A stretch of 64,000 nucleotides of DNA from the NCBI GenBank assembly GCA_041664925.1, contig JBAYJV010000001.1, positions 125,845 to 189,844 on the forward strand, written 5' to 3'. Both the position numbers and the translations under genes were made by a program. This document shows, piece by piece, positions 5,680 to 56,193 of the stretch. Position 1 is the stretch's first letter. Each line of letters begins with the position of its first letter. The notes below the pieces were generated by a model. The model searched no databases and was not told the DNA's origin. It saw only the letters and a program-made list of their open reading frames with translations. This DNA comes from Minisyncoccota bacterium (GTDB lineage Bacteria > Patescibacteriota > Minisyncoccia > JBAYJV01).

Positions 5680-6717
5680 TCATGAATTGATCGTCATAAG
5701 GTGTCCGACGCGAATCACATGTTCAAGTAAGGAGACTGTGTATCCCCATTCATTGTCATACCAAATAAGCACTTTCACTAAGTCACCATCTACTATTTTC
5801 GTTGATTTTAAATCAACGATCGCTGGGTATGGATCTTTTATGATATCGGTTGAAACCAATTCTTCGTCGCTGGTTTTTACAATACCTTTCCAGCGCGGTT
5901 CCTTTTCGGCCTCTTTGAGAATATTATTAATTTCTTCAACACTAGTAATTTTTGACGCGACAAAAGTAACATCAGCGATTGATCCGCAAACCACCGGAAC
6001 CCTGATCGCCAGACCATCAAATTTTCCTTTAAGGGCAGGCAAGGCATCGCCCGTGGCAATTGCAGCGCCAGTAGAAGATGGACCCAAGTTGACTGCCGCC
6101 GCTCGTCCTCGTCTTAAATCTTTAGTATCGGGTCGATCAACAATGCCTTGAGTAGCGGTATAAGCATGGACTGTATTTAAAATTGCTTTCTTTATTCCTA
6201 GTTTTTCAGATAAAATTGCCACTACAGGAGCAATAGCATTGGTTGTGCAAGAAGCATTGGAGGTAATCGCAGATAAACCATCTTTGAAATCTTCGTCATT
6301 GACGCCAATTAAAACTTGCTGACCCCCACTACCCTTTGCTGGAGCAGTAATAATAACTCTTTTGGCGCCAGCTTTTAAATGAGCGCCTGCCTTTTCATAA
6401 TCAGTAAAAACGCCAGTTGATTCGATAACTACGTCTACTCCTAAATCTCCCCATGGTAATTTTTCAATTTCCTTTTCTGTTAAGCTTAATATTTTTTTAC
6501 CATCGACTTCTAAATAGTTCGATTGTCCCTCACTAATTGCCTTCACATTTTTTTCATAACGACCATAAACGCTGTCATATTTTAAAAGATAAGCGAGCGT
6601 TTCATCATCAGTTAAATCATTGATTGCGACAATCTCAATGTCCGGTTTCTCTAAAGCCAACTTAAGAAAACAACGACCGATACGACCAAAACCATTAATA
6701 GCAATTTTTATAGGCAT
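5680..6717 (-). CDS. gap: glyceraldehyde-3-phosphate dehydrogenase, type I
   Basis: INGFGRIGR NAD-binding motif and SNASCTTN active-site motif. The start was moved to the internal Met (MPIKIAINGFGRIGR), codon 9 of the listed ORF. Confidence 0.85.
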   Translation of the reverse strand: MPIKIAINGFGRIGRCFLKLALEKPDIEIVAINDLTDDETLAYLLKYDSVYGRYEKNVKAISEGQSNYLEVDGKKILSLTEKEIEKLPWGDLGVDVVIESTGVFTDYEKAGAHLKAGAKRVIITAPAKGSGGQQVLIGVNDEDFKDGLSAITSNASCTTNAIAPVVAILSEKLGIKKAILNTVHAYTATQGIVDRPDTKDLRRGRAAAVNLGPSSTGAAIATGDALPALKGKFDGLAIRVPVVCGSIADVTFVASKITSVEEINNILKEAEKEPRWKGIVKTSDEELVSTDIIKDPYPAIVDLKSTKIVDGDLVKVLIWYDNEWGYTVSLLEHVIRVGHLMTINS

Positions 6718-6871
6718 AATACTAATAATCACAAATAACAAAAACCATAGCGTTTCCGTCTAAATAGATTATACACTAAAAAATAGATACTTTTAAGTGG
6801 ATAAAAAAACGGCCAAAAAATAAGTTATTTTTAAGCAATATTTTGAATTGAAGCAAAATTTGCTAAAATAC

Positions 6872-6899
6872 TTGACAAACTTTCTGTATCTGCTATAAT
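6872..6899 (+). promoter_or_regulatory. consensus sigma70 promoter (TTGACA, 16-nt spacer, TGcTATAAT) driving small RNA 1
   Basis: Sequence ACTTGACAAACTTTCTGTATCTGCTATAATG. It is near-identical over 31 nt to the promoter at 8890..8917. Confidence 0.7.
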
Positions 6900-6905
6900 G
6901 ATTAT

Positions 6906-7027
6906 GTTGGTGAGATTGCATAAGAAATGTAATGAACAACCAGCCTTGGGTCGAGGTCACCCTTGGAAAAAGGGGATGCGCTCACCAACACCAGAGTCCG
7001 ACTTTTGAAGAAGGACTCTTTTTTTAA
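6906..7027 (+). ncRNA. candidate small structured RNA (~120 nt), family unassigned (a 4.5S/SRP-like hairpin is one possibility)
   Basis: It starts about 7 nt after the -10 box. A 9-bp closing stem (GTTGGTGAG with CTCACCAAC) encloses a GC-rich hairpin with a GGAA-containing apical loop. It ends in an intrinsic terminator (AGAGTCC, 13-nt loop, GGACTCT, T7) at 6993..7026. There is no ORF. Confidence 0.45.
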
Positions 7028-8008: not shown

Positions 8009-8380
8009 TTATACTTTTATTCTTTCTACTTCTATTGCTACTACACCGAACTTTTTTTGCTGTTCATCGGTATAGAATTGTTTGTATTTTTCAAGACCCT
8101 GCTCAATTGTTTCAACATCGGGCAATATTTTTTTAATCGGTTCTTTTTCGAGCATTTCTTTTATAGAAATATATGCTTGCACTCTTTTTACGAACACTTC
8201 TACTGATTCTGTTTCTTGATTATTATAAACGATTATACGATCTCCTGGTTTTATAAATTGATATTTTCCTTTCCTAATTCGCCCTTCAATTGTTTTTTGA
8301 CCATTCTTAACAAATGTAAAATATGGTTCAGTTCGATGATTGTGATAGGTGGTAAAATTAGTTTCAGATATCTTTTTCAT
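8009..8380 (-). CDS. ASCH-domain (PUA-like) protein, YqfB-like
   Basis: 123 aa with ...KNGQKTIEGRIRKGKY..KPGDRI... matching the ASCH core (GxKTxExR ... GD). Its size matches E. coli YqfB, an ac4C amidohydrolase. Confidence 0.55.
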   Translation of the reverse strand: MKKISETNFTTYHNHRTEPYFTFVKNGQKTIEGRIRKGKYQFIKPGDRIIVYNNQETESVEVFVKRVQAYISIKEMLEKEPIKKILPDVETIEQGLEKYKQFYTDEQQKKFGVVAIEVERIKV

Positions 8381-8387
8381 ATTACTA

Positions 8388-8819
8388 TTATTTTTTTATT
8401 CTCGAAATATCATCTATTGTAATCCATGCCGACATTGCACCAAGTCCCGTTTTGTCAATTTCGAATGGCTTAATTTCTTGTGAATTCTTTAAGAATATAA
8501 GCATGCAATATTTTTTGTTTTTGAATCTTTCAAAAAATTCGGGAATTTTTTCTTTTTCTATACCATCTTCTTTGCCATATTCGTCTAATATTTCTTTTAC
8601 TTTTTTAGGGGTCAAATCGGAAAATTGAACGACATCGCTAACTTCCGCTTTTATATTTACTGGTTCTCCCGAATCTTTAAAATAAATCGTTTCTCTTTTT
8701 TTGATATTATTCCAAGGTTTATATTTTACCGAATACCAGCGCGATTCAATCTTTTTCTGACCGCTCAGAATTTTATCTGTAAGACCCCAAGATTTTCTCA
8801 TTATTGCTACATGTTCCAT
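8388..8819 (-). CDS. ASCH-domain (PUA-like) protein
   Basis: 143 aa with WGLTDKILSGQKKIESRW matching the ASCH N-terminal beta-hairpin motif. It is in tandem with the previous ASCH gene. Confidence 0.5.
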   Translation of the reverse strand: MEHVAIMRKSWGLTDKILSGQKKIESRWYSVKYKPWNNIKKRETIYFKDSGEPVNIKAEVSDVVQFSDLTPKKVKEILDEYGKEDGIEKEKIPEFFERFKNKKYCMLIFLKNSQEIKPFEIDKTGLGAMSAWITIDDISRIKK

Positions 8820-8889
8820 ATTTCTGACTTTACATAAACTCTTTAACCTTTAATTTTTATCTAAATTTACACATTTTTACCAAAAACAC

Positions 8890-8917
8890 TTGACAAACTT
8901 TATGTATATGCTATAAT
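8890..8917 (+). promoter_or_regulatory. consensus sigma70 promoter (TTGACA, 16-nt spacer, TGcTATAAT) driving small RNA 2
   Basis: Sequence ACTTGACAAACTTTATGTATATGCTATAATG. It differs at 2 of 31 positions from the promoter at 6872..6899. Confidence 0.7.
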
Positions 8918-8923
8918 GGTAGT

Positions 8924-9112
8924 ATTGTCACATAGCTCAAGATATAGCAGAGCGGCGGCCCAAAAACCGTGTCAGACCGATGGGGCATAGGGGCAGTGCT
9001 GGCAAGCACATAGGCCCTCAAAACCTAGGTCGCGAGATAATGCATCTCGTTGTGTGAGTCGAAACTCACTGTGGCAGCACAGCCGTATGGTTCGCCCAGC
9101 GGCTTTTTTTTA
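8924..9112 (+). ncRNA. candidate structured RNA (~190 nt), family unassigned
   Basis: The segment is GC-rich (>50% against a ~33% background) and has no ORF. It has multiple perfect hairpins (GCGAGAT, aatgc, ATCTCGt; GTGAGT, cgaaa, ACTCAC; CTGTG, gcag, CACAG). It is followed by GGC plus T8 at 9101..9112. It contains AUAGGGGCAG, reminiscent of the RNase P P4-P5 junction, but it is far too short for a bacterial RNase P RNA. Confidence 0.45.
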
Positions 9113-9164
9113 TCAATAGTCGCTATATTGTTATTAATATAGATATACAAATTGCCTACAAAGA

Positions 9165-9192
9165 TTGACTTTTTTTATCAATATGCTATAAT
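9165..9192 (+). promoter_or_regulatory. sigma70 promoter (TTGACT, 16-nt spacer, TGcTATAAT) for the small-ORF pair
   Basis: GATTGACTTTTTTTATCAATATGCTATAATATAATC. It shares the extended -10 TGCTATAAT with the two sRNA promoters. Confidence 0.6.
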
Positions 9193-9222
9193 ATAATCAT
9201 ACGGTAAAAGGAGGTAGCGGTC

Positions 9223-9420
9223 ATGTCTCTATTAGATGAGTATCGTAATTGTTCTACCAATCCCCCGACCGATGTTGCGAAAAGGATTTTGTTTGATGTT
9301 ATCGACGATATTACTAGTCGAAGCGGATGGGATTGGGACGACGATCCAGTAGTTGATGACGAAACGAAAGAGGAAATCCTAGAAACAAATCTAGAAAAAA
9401 TCCAACGCCATCTGCAGTAA
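9223..9420 (+). CDS. small highly acidic protein (65 aa), hypothetical
   Basis: Strong RBS AAAGGAGG 7 nt upstream. About 17 D/E against 7 K/R/H, with a DDDPVVDDETKEE stretch. Its GC content is clearly above the local background. Confidence 0.5.
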   Translation: MSLLDEYRNCSTNPPTDVAKRILFDVIDDITSRSGWDWDDDPVVDDETKEEILETNLEKIQRHLQ

Positions 9421-9453
9421 GAATAAATTAGGGTCAATGAAAGGAGGACAGTT

Positions 9454-9663
9454 ATGGATGATACTTGGAGTGTTAAGTGTCAAAGTTGTGGCGTTGAGTA
9501 CAAGGTAGAAGCATCTGGAGAACAAGAAGCTATCAAAGCTGCTAGGAAAGAACACGAACGAGTGAATGCAGAAGCGACGGCTTTTCGGTGCGATCTTGGT
9601 CCCTTCATGACTCACGCGTTCAATCTCACTCACCCTGATCATCCATGCGCTCCGAAAGAATAG
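9454..9663 (+). CDS. small Cys-containing (zinc-ribbon-like CxxC) protein, hypothetical
   Basis: 69 aa. RBS AAAGGAGG upstream. CQSC...C...HPDHPC. It is GC-rich like its neighbour. Confidence 0.5.
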   Translation: MDDTWSVKCQSCGVEYKVEASGEQEAIKAARKEHERVNAEATAFRCDLGPFMTHAFNLTHPDHPCAPKE

Positions 9664-9698
9664 TGAACCAATATCGCTACTCATCAAGTTCGCCTCGA

Positions 9699-9732
9699 GT
9701 CCCATTCAGCGTGTCTGTTTGGGACTTTTTTT
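9699..9732. terminator. bidirectional intrinsic terminator
   Basis: GTCCCA, loop TTCAGCGTGTCTGTT, TGGGAC then T7. It lies between 9454..9663(+) and 9731..10180(-). Confidence 0.65.
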
Positions 9733-10180
9733 ATTTATTATGAAATTTTTTATCCTTAGGAATGTCGTAATAAGTTATTCCTTTCTCATGGCTTTCAATG
9801 GATATTCTGCAAATATCAAATAACGGCTGAGGAAGGTTATTTAAATCATACCAATCCCACGACTCGCATTTTTCAGGCTCTAAAACTTTCGGCTCGCCGC
9901 TTTTGAAGTCCGCCAATAATCCGATATGAACATAATGTTTTGGCGCATAAGCGATAACATTGGCTAAAAATTGGAAACGGATATTTTTAATTTCAATGCC
10001 GCATTCTTCGCGAACTTCTCTTCTCGCACAATCTTCAAAAGATTCCATATATTCAAGATGTCCTCCGGGAAAGGCATATTCTCCTTCGCCATGCGACCCT
10101 TTTCTTTTTCCAAGTAAAAATTTCCCATCCTTAAAAATCATCACGCCAACTCCAACTTTTGGTTTATCGTTTTGATCCAT
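9731..10180 (-). CDS. NUDIX hydrolase
   Basis: Nudix box GGHLEYMESFEDCARREVREECG (Gx5Ex7REuxEExG). Confidence 0.8.
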   Translation of the reverse strand: MDQNDKPKVGVGVMIFKDGKFLLGKRKGSHGEGEYAFPGGHLEYMESFEDCARREVREECGIEIKNIRFQFLANVIAYAPKHYVHIGLLADFKSGEPKVLEPEKCESWDWYDLNNLPQPLFDICRISIESHEKGITYYDIPKDKKFHNK

Positions 10181-10875: not shown

Positions 10876-13647
10876 TTAAGAATATTTTTCTAAACAACAT
10901 TTTTTAAACTTCTTGCCCGAGCCGCATGGACAGGGATCATTTCTGCCAACATGCTTAAATTCTGGCGGGGTGTTGTCGTTGCTTGACTGCTTTTGTTCTT
11001 GCTCTTTGGAAAATCTTTCAATCGCATTTTCTGGCGCATCTTTTTTCACCTGCGATAAAAGCGGTTTATTTTGATCTTGAGTTTTAGCTGCTCCTTGTAA
11101 AATTATCGGTGTTTCACGGCGAATAAAACGAGCATTCGGTTGTTCTTGAATTTCTATTCTGAAAAATCTTTTGAGCGTTTCTCTTCTTATATCAAACAAT
11201 AACTCCTTAAATCTCTGGTAGCCATCATTTTTATATTCTACAAGCGGATCTCTTTGTCCATAAGCTCGCAATCTCACGCTGTCGCGCAAATATTCCATAC
11301 CATCTAAATGTTCCATCCAAAAAAGATCAATTGTTGATAGAAGTAGTCCTCTAGAAACTTGAATAAAAACTTCTTTATCAGCCACTTCTCTGATTTTTGA
11401 AATTCTTTCAAGAGCAGAATTGATGATTATATTTTTAATTTTTTCTCTTTTTTCTGAAGGCGTAATGTTTTCATCCTTAATTCCAAGAAGTGTTTTGTGA
11501 AGATCTTGATTTAAATGAAAAGCGGCAACACCCTCTTCGGCTAATTCCTCAAGATTCCACATTCTTTCTTCTCGTTCGGGAAGAAGAGCATTGGTCATTT
11601 CCTCGGCTTCTTTTCCAATATATTCCTTGAATGTTTCCTCTGGCTTATCGCTTTCCAAAATTTCGTTGCGCTTACGATAAATAGTTTCTCGGTGAACATT
11701 CATAACATCATCGTATTCCAAAACATGTTTTCTGGCATCAAAATGAAATCCTTCTATTTTGCCTTGAGCAGATTCAAGCGCGCGAGAAACCATTGCATTT
11801 TCAATCGGCTGATCTTCGGGTATGCCAAATTTTCCCATTAAATTCTTGATGCGATCGGAACCAAAAACCCTCATTAAATCGTCTTCAAGTGAAACGAAGA
11901 ATTGAGATTCTCCCGGATCACCCTGACGACCAGCGCGACCTCTTAACTGATTGTCGATTCTGCGAGCTTCATGGCGTTCCGTACCAATGACGCAAAGTCC
12001 GCCAGCTTCTTTAACTTTCTTTGCCTCTTCTTCATTAAAAGGATTACCTCCTAAGACAATATCAACACCACGGCCAGCCATATTAGTTGCAATTGTTACC
12101 GCCCCAAATCTGCCTGCTTGAGCAATAATTTCTCCTTCTCTCTCATGGTTTTTTGCATTCAAAAGATTGTGTTCTATGCCTTCGACTTTAAGAAGCGCCC
12201 CTAAGCGTTCATTTTTTTCAATAGAAATTGTGCCAACCAAAACGGGTTGGCCTTTTTTATTGCATTCTTTTATTTTTCTAATGATTGCTTCGTATTTTCC
12301 TTTTTCGGTTTGGTAAATACTATCCGGCCTGTCTTTACGAATTAATGGTCTGTGAGTGGGAATTGACGTGACATCAAGTTTATAAACTTTGTGAAATTCT
12401 TCCGCACTCGTCAAAGCGGTTCCGGTCATACCGGCTAATTTTTTATAAAGTCTGAAATAGTTTTGAAAAGTAATCGTTGCTAGGGTTCGTGATTCCTTAT
12501 TGACTTCAACTCCTTCCTTGGCTTCGATTGCCTGATGAAGACCTTCTGAATAGCGTCTTCCCGGCATAAGGCGACCCGTAAAGTCATCAACAATAATAAC
12601 TTCGCCATCCTTGACGACATAATTTTTATCACGCTTGAAAAGAATCTCCGCTTGAAGCGCTTGTTCTAAATGATGAAGAATGTCTATATTTGATCCTGAA
12701 TAAATATCGGCCATCCCCAAAAGTTTTTCGACATGATTAATGCCTTCTTCCGTCAGTGTTACCGCCCTCATTTTCTCATCTAAGTTGTAATCAGTATTTT
12801 CTTTTAATTTGGGAACAACTTGAGACAACGTTTTATAAAGTTCGCTTGAATTTGTGTCCGGCTGGGAAATAATCAGAGGCGTTCTGGCTTCATCAATTAA
12901 TATGGAATCTACTTCGTCGACAATGCCATAGCTATGACCTCTTTGCGATTTTTGGGATAGATCATAAACCATATTGTCTCTCAAATAATCAAAACCGTAT
13001 TCATTGTTTGTTCCATAAGTAATATCCATCGCATATGCTTGTCTTCTTTCGCAAGGTCTTAAAAATTCTTGAACAACATGAAAAGATCCAAGCTCATCGC
13101 GTTTTTCATCGAGAATTTCTTCTTCTTTGTCTGTTTTTTTCCAAGTCGAATCATAAAGAAATGATTGATTTTGTTGTTGAATGCAACCGATTGTTAATCC
13201 CAAAAAATCGTAAATCTGACCCATCCAAACAGCATCTCTTCGAGCCAAATAATCATTGACCGTAACCACATGGGCGCCTTTTCCCGTCAAAGCATTTAAA
13301 TAAACCGCCAATGTTGCTGCCAAGGTTTTCCCTTCTCCAGTTTTCATTTCAACAACATGACCACGATGGAGAGCAATACCACACATAAGCTGTTCATCAA
13401 AATGACGCTGTTTTAATGTGCGTTTTGACGCTTCTCTGACCAATGCAAAAGCAAGTGCTAACGCACCATCAACTGTCAATTCTCCATTTTCAACGCTATG
13501 TTTTAGCTTTATGCTTTTTTCTTTAATTTGGACATCAGAAAGCTTTTCGAGTTCCGGCTCGAAATTATTAACTTGATCAATAATCGGTCTTAAACCATCT
13601 GTGTACTTTTTATTGGCATCGCCAAAAATTTTAGATAGAATCCCCAT
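10876..13647 (-). CDS. secA: preprotein translocase ATPase SecA
   Basis: 923 aa with a Walker A MKTGEGKTL and a C-terminal zinc finger CPCGSGKKFKKCC. Confidence 0.95.
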   Translation of the reverse strand: MGILSKIFGDANKKYTDGLRPIIDQVNNFEPELEKLSDVQIKEKSIKLKHSVENGELTVDGALALAFALVREASKRTLKQRHFDEQLMCGIALHRGHVVEMKTGEGKTLAATLAVYLNALTGKGAHVVTVNDYLARRDAVWMGQIYDFLGLTIGCIQQQNQSFLYDSTWKKTDKEEEILDEKRDELGSFHVVQEFLRPCERRQAYAMDITYGTNNEYGFDYLRDNMVYDLSQKSQRGHSYGIVDEVDSILIDEARTPLIISQPDTNSSELYKTLSQVVPKLKENTDYNLDEKMRAVTLTEEGINHVEKLLGMADIYSGSNIDILHHLEQALQAEILFKRDKNYVVKDGEVIIVDDFTGRLMPGRRYSEGLHQAIEAKEGVEVNKESRTLATITFQNYFRLYKKLAGMTGTALTSAEEFHKVYKLDVTSIPTHRPLIRKDRPDSIYQTEKGKYEAIIRKIKECNKKGQPVLVGTISIEKNERLGALLKVEGIEHNLLNAKNHEREGEIIAQAGRFGAVTIATNMAGRGVDIVLGGNPFNEEEAKKVKEAGGLCVIGTERHEARRIDNQLRGRAGRQGDPGESQFFVSLEDDLMRVFGSDRIKNLMGKFGIPEDQPIENAMVSRALESAQGKIEGFHFDARKHVLEYDDVMNVHRETIYRKRNEILESDKPEETFKEYIGKEAEEMTNALLPEREERMWNLEELAEEGVAAFHLNQDLHKTLLGIKDENITPSEKREKIKNIIINSALERISKIREVADKEVFIQVSRGLLLSTIDLFWMEHLDGMEYLRDSVRLRAYGQRDPLVEYKNDGYQRFKELLFDIRRETLKRFFRIEIQEQPNARFIRRETPIILQGAAKTQDQNKPLLSQVKKDAPENAIERFSKEQEQKQSSNDNTPPEFKHVGRNDPCPCGSGKKFKKCCLEKYS

Positions 13648-15663: not shown

Positions 15664-15723
15664 TCCTTTTTTTCTTTTTAAAGAACCGCCGTTATCCTAT
15701 CAAAATTACTAATAAAAGTCAAT
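15664..15723 (-). promoter_or_regulatory. duplicated promoter/5'UTR module, copy 1 (upstream of the DUF218 gene)
   Basis: As read on the plus strand, a ~48-nt near-identical block (TCCTTTTTTTCTTTTTAAAGAACCGCCGTTATCCTATCAAAATTA) is shared with 19047..19107. On the minus strand it contains TTGACT, a 17-nt spacer, TAGGAT, the sequence AACGGCGGTTCTTTAAAAAG, an AAGGAGG RBS, then ATG. Confidence 0.6.
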
Positions 15724-19046: not shown

Positions 19047-19107
19047 CTCCTTTTTTCTTTTTAAAGAACCGCCGTTATCCTATCAAAATTATTTACAAAA
19101 GTCAATG
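19047..19107 (-). promoter_or_regulatory. duplicated promoter/5'UTR module, copy 2 (upstream of the IMPase gene)
   Basis: Near-identical to 15664..15723. It is followed by an RBS and the ATG at 19039. Confidence 0.6.
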
Positions 19108-50496: not shown

Positions 50497-53400
50497 TTAT
50501 GATGATTGAATGCCGTAACTGGTAGAATAAGATCCACTCGATGAACCCGTCGGCACTTTCGCTTCAACCGTCACCTGAATTTGTCTACCAATTGTTGAGG
50601 CATCGGTGTCGCCAGTTAATGTCATGCCACTACTAAGAGTGCTAGCTGCTGTAATACCAATCGCACTGCCAGTTGTGCTTGCATTTGATGATTGAGCCGA
50701 ATAGAAACGCATATTATCAGTCACGGCAATCGTATTGCTTCCGCTCGTCCAATTATCAAACTTCATTTTGAAGGTCGTTTCTGAGGTCGGTACCGTGATA
50801 TTGAATGTCCATGACCAACCATCGGTTGTTGAAGCAACGCCATCTGGCCATCCACCAGCAACAGCGGCATAAGATTCCTTAGTGGTAATACTCGTTACAG
50901 CTAACGATCCATCGCCTTGAGCGACTGTCGTAAATTCTTGATCTGCCTTTGTTGTGTAGGCTGTCATAGCGTTTCCTGCGGCATCTTTGGCGCCGGAAAC
51001 CCAGATATAATACTGCGTGCTGTTATCCAAGCTCGCAACAGGATCAATCGTAGCAATATAAGTACCGGAGACATAAGTGACTACTGAATTAACTACTGCA
51101 TCCGTAGATGAGGCTCTCAATTGAACCGTGTTTGTATTGATGGTATCGGAATCCATTGCTTCAGAGAAGGTAACGGTTGGTGAAACTGTAATAGCAGTAC
51201 CTGTTGCATTATCTAACGGTGTTTGTGATAACACGCTTGGAGCGCTATCTGCTATGGTCGTAAATTCTTGATCTGCCTTTGTTGTGTAGGCTGTCATAGC
51301 GTTTCCTGCAGCATCTTTAGCGCCTGAAACCCAGATATAATACTGAGTACTATTGCTCAAGCTAGCAACTGGATCAATGGTAGCAACATAAGTACTGACA
51401 TTGTAAGTAACCACTGAATTAATTATCGCATCCGTAGATGAGGCTCTTAATTGAACAGTGTTTGTATTTACGGTTGACGAATCCATCGCTTCAGAGAAGG
51501 TAACGGTCGGAGAGACTGTAATGGCGGTACCTGTTGCATTATCTAGCGGTGTTTGTGATGATACACTTGGAGCGCTAGATGAAACCGTAATGCCTGTCTG
51601 AGACCCTGTAATGGTCGGACTGGCATTATCTGTTCCCGTTACGCTGACTCCTCCTTCAGCAGTTGTGAATTTAATCATGTCGTTAAAGAGATAGCTTCCA
51701 TTGTCACCTGCTATGAAGGTGTGTCTGCCATTACTTTGCCAGATCGGTCCAGTTGATGACGCGTCCATCCAGACAGAACCAGTATAAGCAGTATCAATAT
51801 TACTGTTAGCATCAACAGAAGCTACTGTTACATCAACAGGAGTATTGGCTGCTGGAGTGGTTGTGCAACTAACCGACAATACAGAAACTATAAAGTTTAT
51901 AGCAAGAGTCGTATCGGCCGTTGAAGTTGTTAAGGTTGAACCAACACCTGTATCAGAAGCGGTTAAGCTTAATGTGTCTTCATCGGGAGTAGTTGCCGTC
52001 AAGTTGGCTGCTGGAATTTGGACTGTCGTTAATGCCTTAGTTCCAGCCACTAAAGTACTGGTACTAGAAGTAAGAGTTAGTGAATCGCCTGTTGAGTCAG
52101 CAATAGCGATAGAGATAGTACTGACATCATCAGGATCGGTGTTGCTGTGAACATCTTTTGCTGTGACTGTTACTGAGATATTATCAGCAAATCTGACATT
52201 TGGGGAAGCTGCCGCCGAAGAAACATCAGACACCACTAATTTTGTCGCAACCACATCCAATGGGGTTGTTGTTGTGACGGCTGACATGTTACCGGCAGTA
52301 CCTAAAGCCCCATCGTCGTCGAAAGACAGGGTGATTGATGCGTCGTCAGTAAAGGTGCCATCAACGCTCGCTTTAAGCCCTGAGAAAGTGGCAATACCCA
52401 AAGTCATCGTGCTAGTTGTATTACCAACTAATGAAGTATTAGCAGTTGTTGAGGTAGCGGTAATTGTTTCTGAGCTGATACCAGTATCGGTGTTGCTGTG
52501 AGCATCGTAGGCTTTAATGACTGGCTGAGTAGTCAAGTTAACCAAGTCAACTGCGCCGCTTGGACTAGTAGTGATTGCTAGTTGAGTAGCAACTACATCC
52601 AAGGAGGTAGTTGAAGTAACAGCTGCCATATTAACGCCACCAATATCTCCGTCATCATTGAAGGATAAATTCATCGAAGCGCCATCAGTAAATGTCCCAT
52701 CAACATTAGCTTTGAGTCCTGAGAAGGTAGCAATACCTGAAGCCATGACCGCTGTCGTTGTGCCCGATACTGAAACGTTTGACGTGTCTGTAGTAGCGGT
52801 AATTGTTTCTGTGCTAACACCAGTATCGGTATTATTGTGAGCATCGTAGGCCTTAATGACTGGCTGAGTAGTTAATGCTACGGTATCAACCGCTCCACTT
52901 GGAGCAGTAGTTATTGCTAATTTTGTTGCAACTACCCCCAAAGAGGTGGTCGCGGTAACAGGTGTCATATCAACACCGCCAATACCTCCGTCATCATTGA
53001 AGGAGAAAGTGATGGTAGAACCATCAGTAAATGTTCCATCCACACTCGCTTGAAGTCCAGAGAAAGTGGCAATACCTGAAGCCATAGTGCTAGTCGTATT
53101 GCCAACGGCTGAAATATCTGTAGTTGTAATTGAGGCTGTAATGACTTCTCCCGTAACACCGGCATCGGTGTTGTCGTGAGCATCGTAGGCCTTAATGACT
53201 GGTTGACCTGTTAAGTTTACTAAATCTTCCGCACCACTTGGAGCAGTAGTTATTGATAATTTTGTCGCAACTACACCCAAGGAGGTGGTCGCGGTAACAG
53301 GTGTCATATCAACACCGCCAATGCCTCCGTCATCATTGAAGGATAAAGTAATTTCAGATCCGTCGGTAAAAGTACCATCTATACTTGCTTGGAGTCCTTC

Positions 53401-56193
53401 AAAGGTAGCAATACCTGAAGCCATAGTACCAGTCGTATTACCGACTAATGAAACATTAGAAGTTGTTGAAGTAGCTGTAATGACTTCTCCGTTAACGCCG
53501 GCATCGGTATTATTGTGGGCATCATAGGCTTTAACAACTGGTTGAGTTGTCAAGTTGACCAAATCAACGGCACCACTCGGACTGGTAGTTAAAACTAATT
53601 GAGTCGCAACTACGCCCAGTGAAGTTGTTGCGGTTGTTGTTGCCATATCAACGCCACCAATAGCTCCGTCATCGTTAAAGGAGAGTGTAATCGTAGCGCC
53701 ATCAGTAAAGGTGCCATCAACATTAGCTATAAGTCCTGAAAAAGTGGCAATACCTGAAGTCATGGTTGCTGTTGTTGTGCCCGAGACTGAAACGTTAGAT
53801 GTATCCGTGGTGGCCGTAATAACTTCCGCAGTAGCACCTGTATCAAGTGTACCATTAGCATCTTGAGCTTGAATGGCTGGTTGGGTTGTCAAGGCTACCG
53901 CATCAACTGCACCAGCTGGCGGAGTAGTGACAACTAATTGAGTTGCCTTAACGTCTGCAGTCGTAGTAGCACTTACCGCTGGAGTAGCGCTAAGATTTAC
54001 TAATCCTGAGCCTGCCACATCATCAGTAAAGATAAGTTGAACATCTTCAGCATCAGCAAAAGCCGTATAGATCATACTAGTAAAGGTAGCAATACCGTTT
54101 GAGGCCGTAGTCGTTGAACCAGCGGTAATACTACCAGCAGCATTGTCTGTCGCTGTTAAAACATCAGAATCAATATGGGTATCAATTTTTCCCTGAGCAT
54201 TAGTATAGTGAACCACCGGTACAGTCATTGATACGCCACTAATAATATTTGAAGGTTCGGTATTGACCGTAAGACCGGTCGCCAGAACATCGGCGGTTGT
54301 AGTCGCAGCATTAACTGGGGAGCCACTAAAGTCCACAGCACCACCACCCGCTGCATTGTCGGTAAAGACGAAAGTGACATTTTCCTCATCAGCAGCTGCG
54401 AAATACAGCAATCCAGCAAAATCAACTTCACCAGCTGCAGCAGAAACAGTTGTTGTGCCTGTTAAACTACCAGCTGATCCCTCTGTAATTGCAACCGTGT
54501 CAGAAGTTGTAATTGCAGTATCCACTTTATTGTCCGCATCTACATATTTAATAACCGGTTGAACCATGGAAACACCGCTAATGATACTTGCCGGTTGAGT
54601 AGTAACAAGAAGTTTGGTGGCGACCACATCAGCAGTTGTAGAGGCAGAAGTTACGGGAGTGCTTATATTAACACCACCGATTGAATCATCGGTAAAGGTG
54701 AATTGAACTGCTTCTTGATCGGCATTAACCGTATATTTCATGCCCGTGAATGTGGCAACACCGCTTGAAACAGTAGTTGTTGAGACAGCAGTAATGCTGC
54801 CAGCGGCATTATCAGTCGCCGTTAGAATGTCAGCGGTAATATCAGTATCAGTTGCATTATTAAGGTCAACATAGCGGACTATGGGTACCGTCATTGAGAC
54901 ACCGCTAATAATAGTTGAAGGCTGAGTATTAATCGCAAGAGCGGTTGCCACGACATTAGCTGTTGTGGTGGCCGCATTGACTGGAGAACCATCGAAAGCT
55001 TTAGCACCACCAGCATTATCGGTAAAGGTAAAGGTTACACTCTCCTGATCAAGAGCCGCCGTATAAATCAATCCCGAGAAGGTAGCGACACCAGATGTAG
55101 CAGAAGTTGTTGTAGCGCCCGCCGTTAATGATCCTGCTGATCCTTCTGTAATAGTAACTGTATCGCCAGTTGTAATGGCAGTATCTACTGTACCGATAGC
55201 ATCTACATATTTAACAACCGGTTGAACCATGGAGACGCCACTAACAATAGTTGCTGGTTGAGTAGTGACAAGAATCCTGGTTGCTACAACATCTGAGGTT
55301 ACGCTATTTGAATGGACATGTAAGGTGTCGCCGGTAGCAGTGGTTATGAAAGATTCTCCGTCGACAACAGCCGTATATTTAATACCAGAAAAAGTAGCCA
55401 CACCACTAACTGAAGTGGTTGCCAGAGTTCCACTAAGATCACCTGCGCCATCTTCTGTTAGAGTAATTGTCTCTGCAAAATTAGTATCGGTATTACCATA
55501 AGTATCTCTCGCAGTAACTTCTGGTTGTGTCAAAGAAACGCCACTGACAGAGCTAGCCGGCTGAGTTGTAAAAACAAGTTGCGTAGCTGTGCCAGGGGTA
55601 AGAGTAACTGCCGCAACATTGGTTTGAGCTGTTTCATCGGTTGCATTTGTGTCAATCGTAAGAGTTCCTGTGGCTCCAGAGGTAGTTGCATTTTGAATAC
55701 CTACTAAAAATCTAAAAGTTGTCGTGCCCGCGCTTAAATCATAAGCATTTAACAGTGTCACGGTAACCGTTCTAGCTGAAGCACTACCGACAACATTATC
55801 AACCGCCCGGTTTACGCCATTAACACTGACCATACCAGTAACAACACTACCGCTTCCATTGTTATTATTAATAGCAGAGCCAACGCTTCCTAAGTCGCCA
55901 TCAGTAATAACATAACCAGTCGGAAAAGTGACTGTAATGGTATTAGCAGTATTAGTCGTATTGGTAAGAAAAGTTGTGTTGTAATCAGCGCCAGTAGCGC
56001 CAACTACTAAGTCAGCTGCTGCGTTTCCCGCAACAACTCCAGAAGAAACTGTTGCCCCGACTGGTAACGGATTTGCCAATAAAAAAATCCCCCCTACAAG
56101 GAGAAACATTATGGTAAATAGCGCCGAGGTCTTTCTTGTATTTTGAGTTCGCATAATTGTTTTTGATAGAAAATTAATTATTTTAGTAAACAT
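50497..56193 (-). CDS. giant surface protein (1898 aa) with N-terminal signal/anchor, more than 10 tandem Ig-like (~105-113 aa) repeats and two C-terminal Big_5/SbsA-type Ig domains
   Basis: Thr/Ser/Ala/Val-rich. Repeats include VVATKLVVTTQPASIISGVSMVQPVIKYVDA.... The two C-terminal copies PSVSSQTPLDNATGTAITVSPTVTFSEAMDS...YYIWVSGAKDAAGNAM have the Big_5 pattern. DNA-level tandem repeats are evident. Confidence 0.7.
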   Translation of the reverse strand: MFTKIINFLSKTIMRTQNTRKTSALFTIMFLLVGGIFLLANPLPVGATVSSGVVAGNAAADLVVGATGADYNTTFLTNTTNTANTITVTFPTGYVITDGDLGSVGSAINNNNGSGSVVTGMVSVNGVNRAVDNVVGSASARTVTVTLLNAYDLSAGTTTFRFLVGIQNATTSGATGTLTIDTNATDETAQTNVAAVTLTPGTATQLVFTTQPASSVSGVSLTQPEVTARDTYGNTDTNFAETITLTEDGAGDLSGTLATTSVSGVATFSGIKYTAVVDGESFITTATGDTLHVHSNSVTSDVVATRILVTTQPATIVSGVSMVQPVVKYVDAIGTVDTAITTGDTVTITEGSAGSLTAGATTTSATSGVATFSGLIYTAALDQESVTFTFTDNAGGAKAFDGSPVNAATTTANVVATALAINTQPSTIISGVSMTVPIVRYVDLNNATDTDITADILTATDNAAGSITAVSTTTVSSGVATFTGMKYTVNADQEAVQFTFTDDSIGGVNISTPVTSASTTADVVATKLLVTTQPASIISGVSMVQPVIKYVDADNKVDTAITTSDTVAITEGSAGSLTGTTTVSAAAGEVDFAGLLYFAAADEENVTFVFTDNAAGGGAVDFSGSPVNAATTTADVLATGLTVNTEPSNIISGVSMTVPVVHYTNAQGKIDTHIDSDVLTATDNAAGSITAGSTTTASNGIATFTSMIYTAFADAEDVQLIFTDDVAGSGLVNLSATPAVSATTTADVKATQLVVTTPPAGAVDAVALTTQPAIQAQDANGTLDTGATAEVITATTDTSNVSVSGTTTATMTSGIATFSGLIANVDGTFTDGATITLSFNDDGAIGGVDMATTTATTSLGVVATQLVLTTSPSGAVDLVNLTTQPVVKAYDAHNNTDAGVNGEVITATSTTSNVSLVGNTTGTMASGIATFEGLQASIDGTFTDGSEITLSFNDDGGIGGVDMTPVTATTSLGVVATKLSITTAPSGAEDLVNLTGQPVIKAYDAHDNTDAGVTGEVITASITTTDISAVGNTTSTMASGIATFSGLQASVDGTFTDGSTITFSFNDDGGIGGVDMTPVTATTSLGVVATKLAITTAPSGAVDTVALTTQPVIKAYDAHNNTDTGVSTETITATTDTSNVSVSGTTTAVMASGIATFSGLKANVDGTFTDGASMNLSFNDDGDIGGVNMAAVTSTTSLDVVATQLAITTSPSGAVDLVNLTTQPVIKAYDAHSNTDTGISSETITATSTTANTSLVGNTTSTMTLGIATFSGLKASVDGTFTDDASITLSFDDDGALGTAGNMSAVTTTTPLDVVATKLVVSDVSSAAASPNVRFADNISVTVTAKDVHSNTDPDDVSTISIAIADSTGDSLTLTSSTSTLVAGTKALTTVQIPAANLTATTPDEDTLSLTASDTGVGSTLTTSTADTTLAINFIVSVLSVSCTTTPAANTPVDVTVASVDANSNIDTAYTGSVWMDASSTGPIWQSNGRHTFIAGDNGSYLFNDMIKFTTAEGGVSVTGTDNASPTITGSQTGITVSSSAPSVSSQTPLDNATGTAITVSPTVTFSEAMDSSTVNTNTVQLRASSTDAIINSVVTYNVSTYVATIDPVASLSNSTQYYIWVSGAKDAAGNAMTAYTTKADQEFTTIADSAPSVLSQTPLDNATGTAITVSPTVTFSEAMDSDTINTNTVQLRASSTDAVVNSVVTYVSGTYIATIDPVASLDNSTQYYIWVSGAKDAAGNAMTAYTTKADQEFTTVAQGDGSLAVTSITTKESYAAVAGGWPDGVASTTDGWSWTFNITVPTSETTFKMKFDNWTSGSNTIAVTDNMRFYSAQSSNASTTGSAIGITAASTLSSGMTLTGDTDASTIGRQIQVTVEAKVPTGSSSGSYSTSYGIQSS
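50927..51590 (-). repeat. two ~330-bp near-identical tandem DNA repeats (Big_5 domain units) inside the giant gene
   Basis: GTCGTAAATTCTTGATCTGCCTTTGTTGTGTAGGCTGTCATAGCGTTTCCTGC recurs with a 330-bp period at about 90% identity. Confidence 0.7.
52300..53900 (-). repeat. array of ~340-bp tandem DNA repeats (Ig-like units) inside the giant gene
   Basis: GCATCGTAGGC(T/C)TTAATGACTGG recurs at about 52503, 52841, 53183 and 53521. Confidence 0.65.

Follow-up and report, generated by a model that had tools for sequence, protein, structure and literature searches.

In a 64,000-nucleotide (nt) stretch of DNA from a Minisyncoccota bacterium (contig JBAYJV010000001.1, positions 125,845 to 189,844; hereafter the window), a segment of 853 bp (8880-9732) contains two independent units that lie in a hypervariable, fast-turnover interval between the genes gap (5680-6741) and secA (10876-13647), both on the minus strand. 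Unit 1 (8890-9112) consists of a promoter (P1), a structured RNA and a terminator (T1), and unit 2 (9165-9732) of a promoter (P2), a gene for an acidic protein, a gene for a protein with a CxxC motif (the CxxC protein) and a terminator (T2). With a little better than even confidence, we read them as autonomous and, to judge from their signals, strongly expressed units, one specifying a tRNA-derived, non-decoding RNA and the other two mini-proteins from a bicistronic message. This reading is built on the anatomy and conservation of the units, on the selection that acts on them, on their independence and on their variable presence among relatives. The same segment had been presented in an earlier note as a single horizontally acquired module; the observations made there were largely right and the interpretation largely wrong.

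The predicted transcript between P1 and T1 is about 187 nt long, contains 54% GC and has a minimum free energy of -69.5 kcal/mol (z = -2.8), which agrees with the small RNA announced in the earlier note; it is bounded by P1 and by a hairpin followed by eight U. Within this transcript, 152 nt can be read in the frame of a canonical tRNA cloverleaf: the acceptor stem has 7 bp and U8 is present, as are a D stem of 4 bp and a T stem of 5 bp with G53-C61. When an extra hairpin of 57 nt was deleted, ARAGORN run at 90% of its normal threshold drew a cloverleaf for this RNA, called none of 3000 shuffled sequences, and produced a single false call across the whole window. The 7-nt anticodon loop with U33 and a fixed anticodon that is expected of a tRNA was not found. 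The sequence of the corresponding loop is CCAAAA for the window copy, CUAAAA for L161 and CCAUAAAA for L140 (L-numbers designate fetched homologous loci and metagenome contigs); its length is thus 6, 6 and 8 nt in the three homologues, and U33 is absent from the window copy. This variation in loop length argues against a role in decoding.

A scan of metagenome contigs with the core of the terminator returned homologues of the RNA in L140, L161 and L169, at 90-94% identity. L161 comes from a congeneric genome whose SecA is 94.8% identical to that of the window. Between these two genomes the RNA is identical at 141 of 152 nt (93%), against 61.7% identity over 313 fourfold-degenerate sites of secA (p about 1e-18), and with its relatives together the RNA shares 91-93% identity; by this comparison the RNA is under strong constraint. 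Five of the seven variable paired columns of the alignment still pair through wobble and two each break one pair, while the remaining variable columns are unpaired positions. In all three loci the conserved part is restricted to the 265 bp that comprise P1, the RNA and T1, with unrelated DNA on both flanks and without the protein genes; P1 itself is kept along with the RNA in L140 and L169. We also made a covariance model (R1) from the homologues of the window RNA and ran it against 1.5 Mb of fetched loci. Apart from the three close copies, its only hits were weak ones to a tRNA-Ala and a tRNA-Trp, both recognised as tRNAs by ARAGORN, which speaks for the tRNA shape; no distant homologue of the RNA was obtained in these 1.5 Mb.

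Other known types of RNA were considered for unit 1. Rfam returned no credible family, either with gathering thresholds on the whole window or at E <= 10 on positions 8800-9800 and 8918-9085. 6S RNA, signal recognition particle RNA, RNase P RNA and riboswitches are excluded, no Rfam family being found at E < 0.4 in 8800-9800. A tmRNA is likewise excluded: none was detected by ARAGORN (default and 80% threshold) and the Rfam tmRNA model did not match. A bacterial Y RNA (YrlA) does not fit, since no Rfam family matches and the ends of the RNA form an acceptor-like stem. The RNA accordingly fails the defining tests of canonical tRNA, tmRNA and Y RNA. A coding function was also rejected, the sole plus-strand open reading frame (ORF) of the region being a 30-amino acid (aa) TTG ORF that crosses the terminator. 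A retron, a toxin-antitoxin RNA and an integron cassette were rejected too: neither reverse transcriptase, repeats nor integrase occur nearby, and each unit has its own promoter.

Table 1. Features of the two units in the window (coordinates of the window; all on the plus strand).
Feature	Position	Strand	Description
Promoter P1	8890-8917	+	TTGACA, 16-nt spacer, extended -10 TGcTATAAT; 12/12 consensus
tRNA-shaped non-coding RNA, 152 nt	8926-9077	+	computed fold and tRNA-frame reading
Acceptor stem, 7 bp	8926-8932 with 9070-9076	+	
U8 and A9	8933-8934	+	
D arm	8935-8953	+	4-bp stem GCUC/GAGC, 11-nt loop; G26 afterwards
Anticodon-like arm	8955-8970	+	5-bp stem, 6-nt loop (window copy)
Extra hairpin, 57 nt	8975-9031	+	between anticodon stem and variable arm
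Long variable arm, 19 nt	9032-9050	+	
T arm	9054-9069	+	5-bp stem with G53-C61, 6-nt loop UCGAAA
Discriminator G (G73)	9077	+	no CCA encoded
Terminator T1	9081-9112	+	hairpin 9081-9104, UUCG loop, internal mismatch, then U8; -11.3 kcal/mol
Promoter P2	9165-9192	+	TTGACT, 16-nt spacer, extended -10 TGcTATAAT; 11/12 consensus
Shine-Dalgarno AAAGGAGG, acidic ORF	9207-9214	+	8 nt before ATG
Acidic protein gene, 65 aa	9223-9420	+	three-helix model; Patescibacteria-only family
Intercistronic spacer	9421-9453	+	GGGTCAA (9431-9437) and second AAAGGAGG (9440-9447)
Shine-Dalgarno AAAGGAGG, CxxC ORF	9440-9447	+	6 nt before ATG
CxxC protein gene, 69 aa	9454-9663	+	probable zinc binding; CxxC knuckle, helix histidine, further cysteine
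3' untranslated region and terminator T2	9664-9732	+	hairpin 9697-9727 then U7; -15.8 kcal/mol, z = -3.4

P1 and P2 carry -35 and -10 hexamers within the 16-18 nt spacing of sigma-70 promoters and are predicted promoters on this basis. Only four sites reach at least 11/12 matches to the consensus in the first 20 kb of the window, and P1 (12/12) and P2 (11/12) are two of them, so that the strong promoters announced in the earlier note are supported at the level of prediction. The same holds for its perfect ribosome-binding sites: AAAGGAGG occurs five times in 64 kb, and two of these copies precede the ATG codons of the small ORFs. T1 and T2 each consist of a hairpin with a U-tract immediately behind it. 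Read on the minus strand, each still forms a hairpin but has no U-tract; since that of T2 is restricted to the plus strand, where it overlaps the stop codon of a convergent NUDIX gene, T2 is not by its sequence the bidirectional terminator that had been proposed. DNA similarity among homologous loci extends through T2, indicating a conserved 3' untranslated region, and among 210 fetched loci the T2 pattern was found solely after CxxC genes. In L001, one position of the T2 hairpin is a C-G pair where a U.U mismatch stood.

The distribution of T1 is much wider. Its 23-nt core, CCG(C/T)ATGGTTCGCCCAGCGGCTT with a T-rich tail, follows at least 70 distinct upstream contexts in metagenome contigs, and T1 is also present 3' of the acidic gene in other genomes, with 93-97% identity. 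T1 is thus a generic, sequence-invariant terminator element of Patescibacteria. Because it follows so many contexts, it does not tie the RNA to the acidic gene, and we discarded it as a proof that the RNA originated in an acidic-gene cassette. The T1 core and T-run are nearly invariant after unrelated contexts (L101-L205), a sharing of sequence that ordinary intrinsic terminators do not show; the core may be an element of Patescibacteria resembling repetitive extragenic palindromic (REP) sequences or one that binds a protein. In addition, the motif CCCRTGRCAY(T)TTT recurs right after T1 or T2 (L001, 6280-6320; L007, about 2035-2065; L094, about 2050-2076; L095, about 1268-1295) and is present in 17 of 105 T1 hits. 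Its opposite strand encodes ...KKCHG-stop, the SEC-C zinc motif of the SecA C-terminus. In L001 this is the true end of secA; in L007, L094 and L095 no secA comes afterwards, and these copies look like relics of rearrangement.

Two further observations concern RNA-like sequences. A second 12/12 promoter is located at 6872-6899 of the window, the segment 6859-6899 being 85% identical to P1 over 41 nt. Behind it comes a GC-rich RNA-like segment of about 115 nt (6859-7025 region), which is closed by a stem of 9 bp (GUUGGUGAG/CUCACCAAC) and ended by a terminator of its own. This segment has no Rfam match and is missing from the syntenic place in L169. In L199 (549-725), R1 had bridged a tRNA-Trp (550-621) and a second copy of its 3' acceptor strand about 100 nt downstream; this duplicated strand may be an integration-site duplication.

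We then consider the two proteins of unit 2. The acidic protein contains 17 Asp or Glu residues in 65 aa, with an isoelectric point (pI) of 4.16 and a net charge of -10, as extreme as previously described. It is 100% identical to the hypothetical protein WC242_01365 [Candidatus Paceibacterota bacterium] and has no other annotation. Its family comprises at least 24 unannotated proteins of Patescibacteria (24 found in 5.8 billion proteins), mostly 62-78 aa long and 41-75% identical, with invariant residues K20, L23, F24, R33, W38, L53, T55 and N56 and a conserved EEILETNLE motif. AlphaFold2 (AF2) predicts three helices (predicted local distance difference test score, pLDDT, 87). It had been suggested that this protein mimics DNA in the manner of anti-restriction proteins. 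No likeness of sequence or fold supports this: the model had no better match than E = 4.4 in a Foldseek search of the PDB, no Pfam or PADLOC family matched, the best PHROGs match had E = 0.047, and a search of PDB sequences with the family profile gave at best an unrelated entry ('4o87 N-tagged nuclease', E = 0.027), which we judged unconvincing. Acidity is, moreover, not a conserved property. The pI ranges from 4.1 to 9.4 in the family (median 4.6), two members being basic (pI 9.0 and 9.4), and the acidic stretch DDDPVVDDE is an insertion specific to the window copy. The family is absent from IMG/VR and from GenBank phages (50,697 phage records), and the contexts of its members are chromosomal, adjoining secA or secDF.

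The CxxC protein contains four Cys and four His. Eight close homologues were found, and a HMMER search over 1.84 billion cluster representatives gave 25 at E <= 0.001. C12 and H34 are invariant, C9 is nearly so and C46 is present in most members; this conservation suggests a Cys2-His-Cys site, and the protein probably binds metal. The AlphaFold2 model is a beta-beta-alpha-beta fold (pLDDT 78), with the CxxC at a hairpin turn and the candidate ligand H34 on the helix. The metal-binding pattern CxxC...C...HxxHPC read from the sequence in the earlier note is conserved only in part, the wider family showing variation at C65 and at the two histidines of HxxH. Nor is the protein a zinc ribbon, which has two CxxC-type knuckles on beta hairpins: there is a single one (C9, C12). 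A phage family with unannotated function, phrog_2919, weakly matched 15 of 27 CxxC-family members (best E = 9e-4), but the CxxC family, like the acidic one, is absent from IMG/VR and GenBank phages, so that a phage origin found no support from either. More generally, neither protein resembles a defence or anti-defence family by sequence or predicted fold. The window's own CxxC protein was not returned from the collection of 5.8 billion proteins, where the best hit is 85% identical, and the gene was probably left uncalled in the source assembly. In L001-L003, gene callers put minus-strand ORFs upstream of the CxxC gene.

Nonsynonymous divergence (pN) is 0.08-0.17 for the acidic gene and 0.09-0.22 for the CxxC gene, with synonymous divergence (pS) saturated in both cases. 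These values indicate real genes subject to purifying selection, and each protein belongs to a small, Patescibacteria-only family under strong purifying selection.

PDC-S07, a candidate defence model of PADLOC, is matched (E = 1.5e-13) by the NUDIX protein encoded convergently next to the CxxC gene (9731-10180). In L001, L006 and L007, too, there are NUDIX genes at most two genes away from the CxxC gene, their mutual identities being only 30-37%.

Both protein genes occur separately elsewhere. The acidic gene is a stand-alone unit, with consensus promoter, Shine-Dalgarno sequence, ORF and T1, in L005 and L095-L100, and in L094 it comes after another small ORF. Solitary CxxC genes occur in L001, L004 and L006; in L007 and L010 the CxxC gene is second, preceded by unrelated small ORFs. 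T2 ends all of these CxxC genes but the one in L004, where the terminator is a different one. Promoters and Shine-Dalgarno sequences are of the consensus type everywhere in the two families. The slot facing the 3' end of secA is occupied by a plus-strand CxxC gene in L001 and by an acidic gene in L208. Of the acidic gene, L146 (about 1700-1830) retains just what its sequence shows to be a deletion remnant: a TTGACA promoter abuts the final ~35 nt (...IRRHL-stop), and downstream lie T1 and, on the opposite strand, the SEC-C C-terminal motif. The stop codon of the acidic gene has GGGGTCAA behind it in L005 and L094. In the window, GGGTCAA, which comes after this stop codon elsewhere, lies in the intercistronic spacer and is possibly a remnant of the usual 3' untranslated region of this gene; we infer a fusion that removed T1 and the promoter of the CxxC gene. 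Self-contained small genes with duplicated punctuation were also seen in L004 (3270-4305), where two adjacent cassettes, one with a ~60% GC gene of about 178 aa and the other with the CxxC gene, have near-identical promoters (TTGACAATTTGCTAAATAT...) and share one and the same terminator of ~55 nt.

Units 1 and 2 are independent of each other, with separate promoters, terminators and distributions, and do not form the single module initially envisaged. The interval in which they lie also contains two genes for ASCH-domain proteins (8009-8380 and 8388-8819), encoded divergently from the RNA unit, a NUDIX gene and a peptidase S51 gene. It is wholly different in L014 and L018, and both protein genes are missing from it in the congeneric genome. 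Among 512 SecA relatives, 80 best-matching species-representative loci were kept, and in these 80 neither the acidic gene, the CxxC gene nor the RNA was found within 6 kb of secA. The comparison of synteny recommended in the earlier note thus bears it out in part, the protein genes being accessory and variably present. The compositional case for a recent transfer is weak. The GC content is 40.9% for the acidic ORF and 47.1% for the CxxC ORF, instead of the 45-50% estimated previously, and that of the window is 36.5% (mean gene 35.3%), instead of ~33%. In comparison with equal-sized in-frame chunks of window genes, the acidic ORF is matched or exceeded by 26%, and only the CxxC ORF is unusual (top 4%). 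GC at third codon positions (GC3) is 0.36 and 0.37 against 0.29 in window genes, a non-significant difference for both ORFs, so that high-expression codon bias was dropped as a source of raised GC3. The GC excess sits in codon positions 1 and 2 and thus reflects amino-acid composition. In every case, homologues of the two genes exceed in GC content the contig that carries them, which makes the modest excess a trait of the families and no sign of recent import.

Expression, processing, partners and function of the two units can be pictured as follows. Transcription from P1 would start 1-3 nt before the 152-nt RNA and would be ended by T1. The RNA retains the frame of a tRNA, with its acceptor stem and U8, its D and T arms and G53-C61, while its anticodon loop is degenerate and it carries two extra arms. 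As with tRNAs, its maturation would involve RNase P and an activity that trims the 3' end. The product would be stable and would not decode but, mimicking a tRNA, would bind a protein that recognises tRNAs, for which the divergently encoded PUA-like proteins of the ASCH superfamily are the nearest candidates; in a relative, the divergent upstream neighbour of the RNA again belongs to the ASCH superfamily, although to another subfamily (DUF3850). The flanks of the RNA may act as a hotspot of gene replacement, as those of tRNA genes do. P2 would drive a bicistronic mRNA for the acidic three-helix protein and a zinc protein with a Cys2-His-Cys site and a beta-beta-alpha-beta fold, the two mini-genes having probably been joined here by loss of the first terminator and of the second promoter. 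Both proteins could be abundant small binding or regulatory factors rather than DNA mimics. Going further, we suggest only tentatively that the RNA is the first member of an undescribed class of the Candidate Phyla Radiation (CPR), tRNA-derived and non-decoding, which would have kept the L-shape, acquired two extra arms and worked with a dedicated partner, perhaps the neighbouring PUA-like proteins of the ASCH type, either by mimicking tRNA or by carrying an aminoacyl group. Like that of a tRNA, its gene would mark a hotspot for the exchange of small self-contained accessory genes.

Several observations weigh against this picture. ARAGORN with default settings finds no tRNA gene in the window and leaves the RNA undetected, and the call at the 90% threshold depended on the hand-made deletion of the 57-nt hairpin. 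Calls at the 80% threshold were set aside as noise, the tRNA-free window giving 25 of them, or 114 when introns are allowed. The Rfam tRNA model does not match the RNA even at E <= 10 on 168 nt. The T loop UCGAAA has 6 nt and not 7, and position G18 is an A in the window copy, whose D loop reads AG, against GG in L140 and L161. Just three distinct and closely related RNA sequences were found, among which there are no compensatory double changes, so that the secondary structure of the RNA is unproven. The association of the RNA with ASCH genes is seen in two related genomes only, and the junction proposed for the fusion of the mini-genes relies on a 7-nt match.

Could the RNA be a genuine tRNA? 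It might be a type II tRNA with an intron-like insertion of 57-60 nt, or one charged without anticodon recognition, as in Ser, Leu and Ala systems, for a non-ribosomal reaction such as cell-wall cross-bridge synthesis. The cloverleaf frame, the 7-bp acceptor stem, the long variable arm and the discriminator G73 are all consistent with this, and CCA is often unencoded in bacterial tRNA genes. An alternative pairing (GCGGCC/GGUCGC) even gives a 7-nt loop with a 60-nt insert one nt past the anticodon position, at a noise-level ARAGORN threshold. We nevertheless consider a genuine tRNA improbable. The anticodon loop varies in length among the homologues and lacks U33 in the window copy, and the T loop is one nt short; there is no G3.U70 pair and no Ser-type G1-C72; the ARAGORN intron search calls the RNA only at the threshold that gives the 114 calls mentioned above; and we know of no bacterial splicing system for such an insert. 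Decay offers another explanation for the same degenerate features: the RNA could be a tRNA pseudogene or a leftover integration site, its conservation merely reflecting the closeness of the genomes compared. Its presence in a single genus-level clade and the recombination hotspots on both flanks would fit, yet a decaying sequence would hardly retain 93% identity over 152 nt against 62% at neutral secA sites of the same genome pair, nor a perfect consensus promoter and a terminator in all copies, nor substitutions that avoid stems or keep pairing. This possibility seems to us slighter still. A non-decoding RNA derived from a tRNA is thus the reading we retain for unit 1.

For unit 2, strong promoters and a place beside secA would also be explained if the two proteins, rather than being accessory regulators, had housekeeping roles in this lineage as partners of the machinery of translation or secretion, for instance a ribosome- or SecA-associated zinc protein. 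Both families are indeed encountered repeatedly opposite the 3' end of secA, in genomes with only 55-75% protein identity, L146 with its remnant included, and have consensus promoters and Shine-Dalgarno sequences throughout. Their occurrence is patchy, however (25 cluster representatives in 1.84 billion for the CxxC protein, 24 proteins in 5.8 billion for the acidic one), both genes are absent from the congeneric interval, and their convergent orientation to secA means that they are not co-transcribed with it; we therefore hold this explanation to be unlikely, though less so than the two readings of the RNA just discussed. The least probable of the alternatives is the one from which the earlier note had started, namely that the whole 853 bp form one horizontally acquired, possibly phage-derived cassette with a DNA-mimic anti-restriction factor, a zinc ribbon and a small RNA. 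It could invoke the variable presence of the protein pair in relatives, the net charge of -10 in 65 aa, and the weak but recurrent similarity of the CxxC family to phrog_2919. It is largely refuted by the different distributions of its three parts, by the Foldseek, Pfam, PADLOC, PHROGs and PDB-profile results for the acidic protein, by the unconserved acidity with its copy-specific DDDPVVDDE stretch, by the lack of relatives in IMG/VR and among the phage records, by a GC3 that is not anomalous, and by the single CxxC knuckle. Two autonomous units, with a tRNA-derived RNA and a pair of binding or regulatory mini-proteins, remain our preferred reading of the segment.

Elsewhere in the window, a minus-strand ORF of 1898 aa (50497-56193) contains at least five tandem 339-nt (113-aa) repeats with 66-87% identity and is among the GC-richest parts of the window. 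Beside it, an ORF of 407 aa (57747-58970) has FG-GAP repeats and is GC3-rich; both probably encode surface proteins. A 56-nt intergenic repeat is present in two copies (15668-15723 and 19051-19106) that are 95% identical, and holds a minus-strand promoter-like site, TTGACT-17-TAGGAT with TG.

CPR bacteria (Patescibacteria) have tiny genomes and almost no described regulatory RNAs. If our reading is correct, a strongly constrained, non-decoding, tRNA-shaped RNA with a consensus promoter in such an organism would be a new example of tRNA mimicry, and the covariance model provides a tractable entry point for finding further copies. The locus also illustrates how accessory functions may be carried as tiny genes that bring along a consensus promoter, a Shine-Dalgarno sequence and a conserved terminator of their own and are exchanged at a slot beside secA. 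As regards the earlier claim the practical outcome is negative: neither a DNA mimic with anti-restriction activity nor a cassette of phage origin finds evidence here.

Among known systems, the DNA mimics Ocr and ArdA share with the window's acidic protein its small size and its acidity, whereas the latter is a predicted 65-aa three-helix bundle without sequence or fold similarity to them, belongs to a family in which acidity is unconserved, and is encoded in a chromosomal setting in Patescibacteria; relatives from phages or plasmids were not found for this family in IMG/VR and GenBank phages. For the CxxC protein, phrog_2919 (small phage zinc beta-beta-alpha proteins) and T7 Gp2-like folds each match singly below significance, and no function can be transferred from them. 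The RNA resembles type II tRNAs in its 7-bp acceptor stem, U8, 4-bp GCUC/GAGC D stem, 5-bp anticodon stem, long variable arm, 5-bp T stem with G53-C61 and discriminator base. It differs from them in its extra 57-nt hairpin, in the anticodon loop of the family (6-8 nt, variable, without a conserved U33) and in its 6-nt T loop, and it is missed by ARAGORN at default and by the Rfam tRNA model.

Y RNAs of the YrlA type, about 100-200 nt long, contain a tRNA-like module with mimics of D and T arms and serve as protein-binding scaffolds (PMC4201824; bioRxiv 10.1101/312249). The Ro-binding stem of YrlA is built from the two ends of the RNA, and YrlA genes adjoin rsr (PMC4201824). The ends of the window RNA instead form an acceptor stem, an anticodon-like arm is present, and no Rfam family matches. 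The Bacillus cereus pseudo-tRNA tRNA-Other is tRNA-shaped and non-translational, is located at the edge of a variable genomic island, has been proposed to be a regulator, and affects cell-wall properties and antibiotic resistance (PMC3399842). Like tRNA-Other, the window RNA has a non-canonical anticodon loop and unrelated flanking DNA in close relatives. tRNA-Other is of normal tRNA size, whereas the window RNA has 152 nt, with an added 57-nt hairpin, a 19-nt variable arm and a consensus promoter and terminator of its own; the likeness is one of description, and we claim no relationship of sequence. The best-supported reading of the window RNA is a non-decoding mimic of tRNA, itself derived from a tRNA, whose closest precedents are tRNA-Other and the tRNA-like module of Y RNAs.

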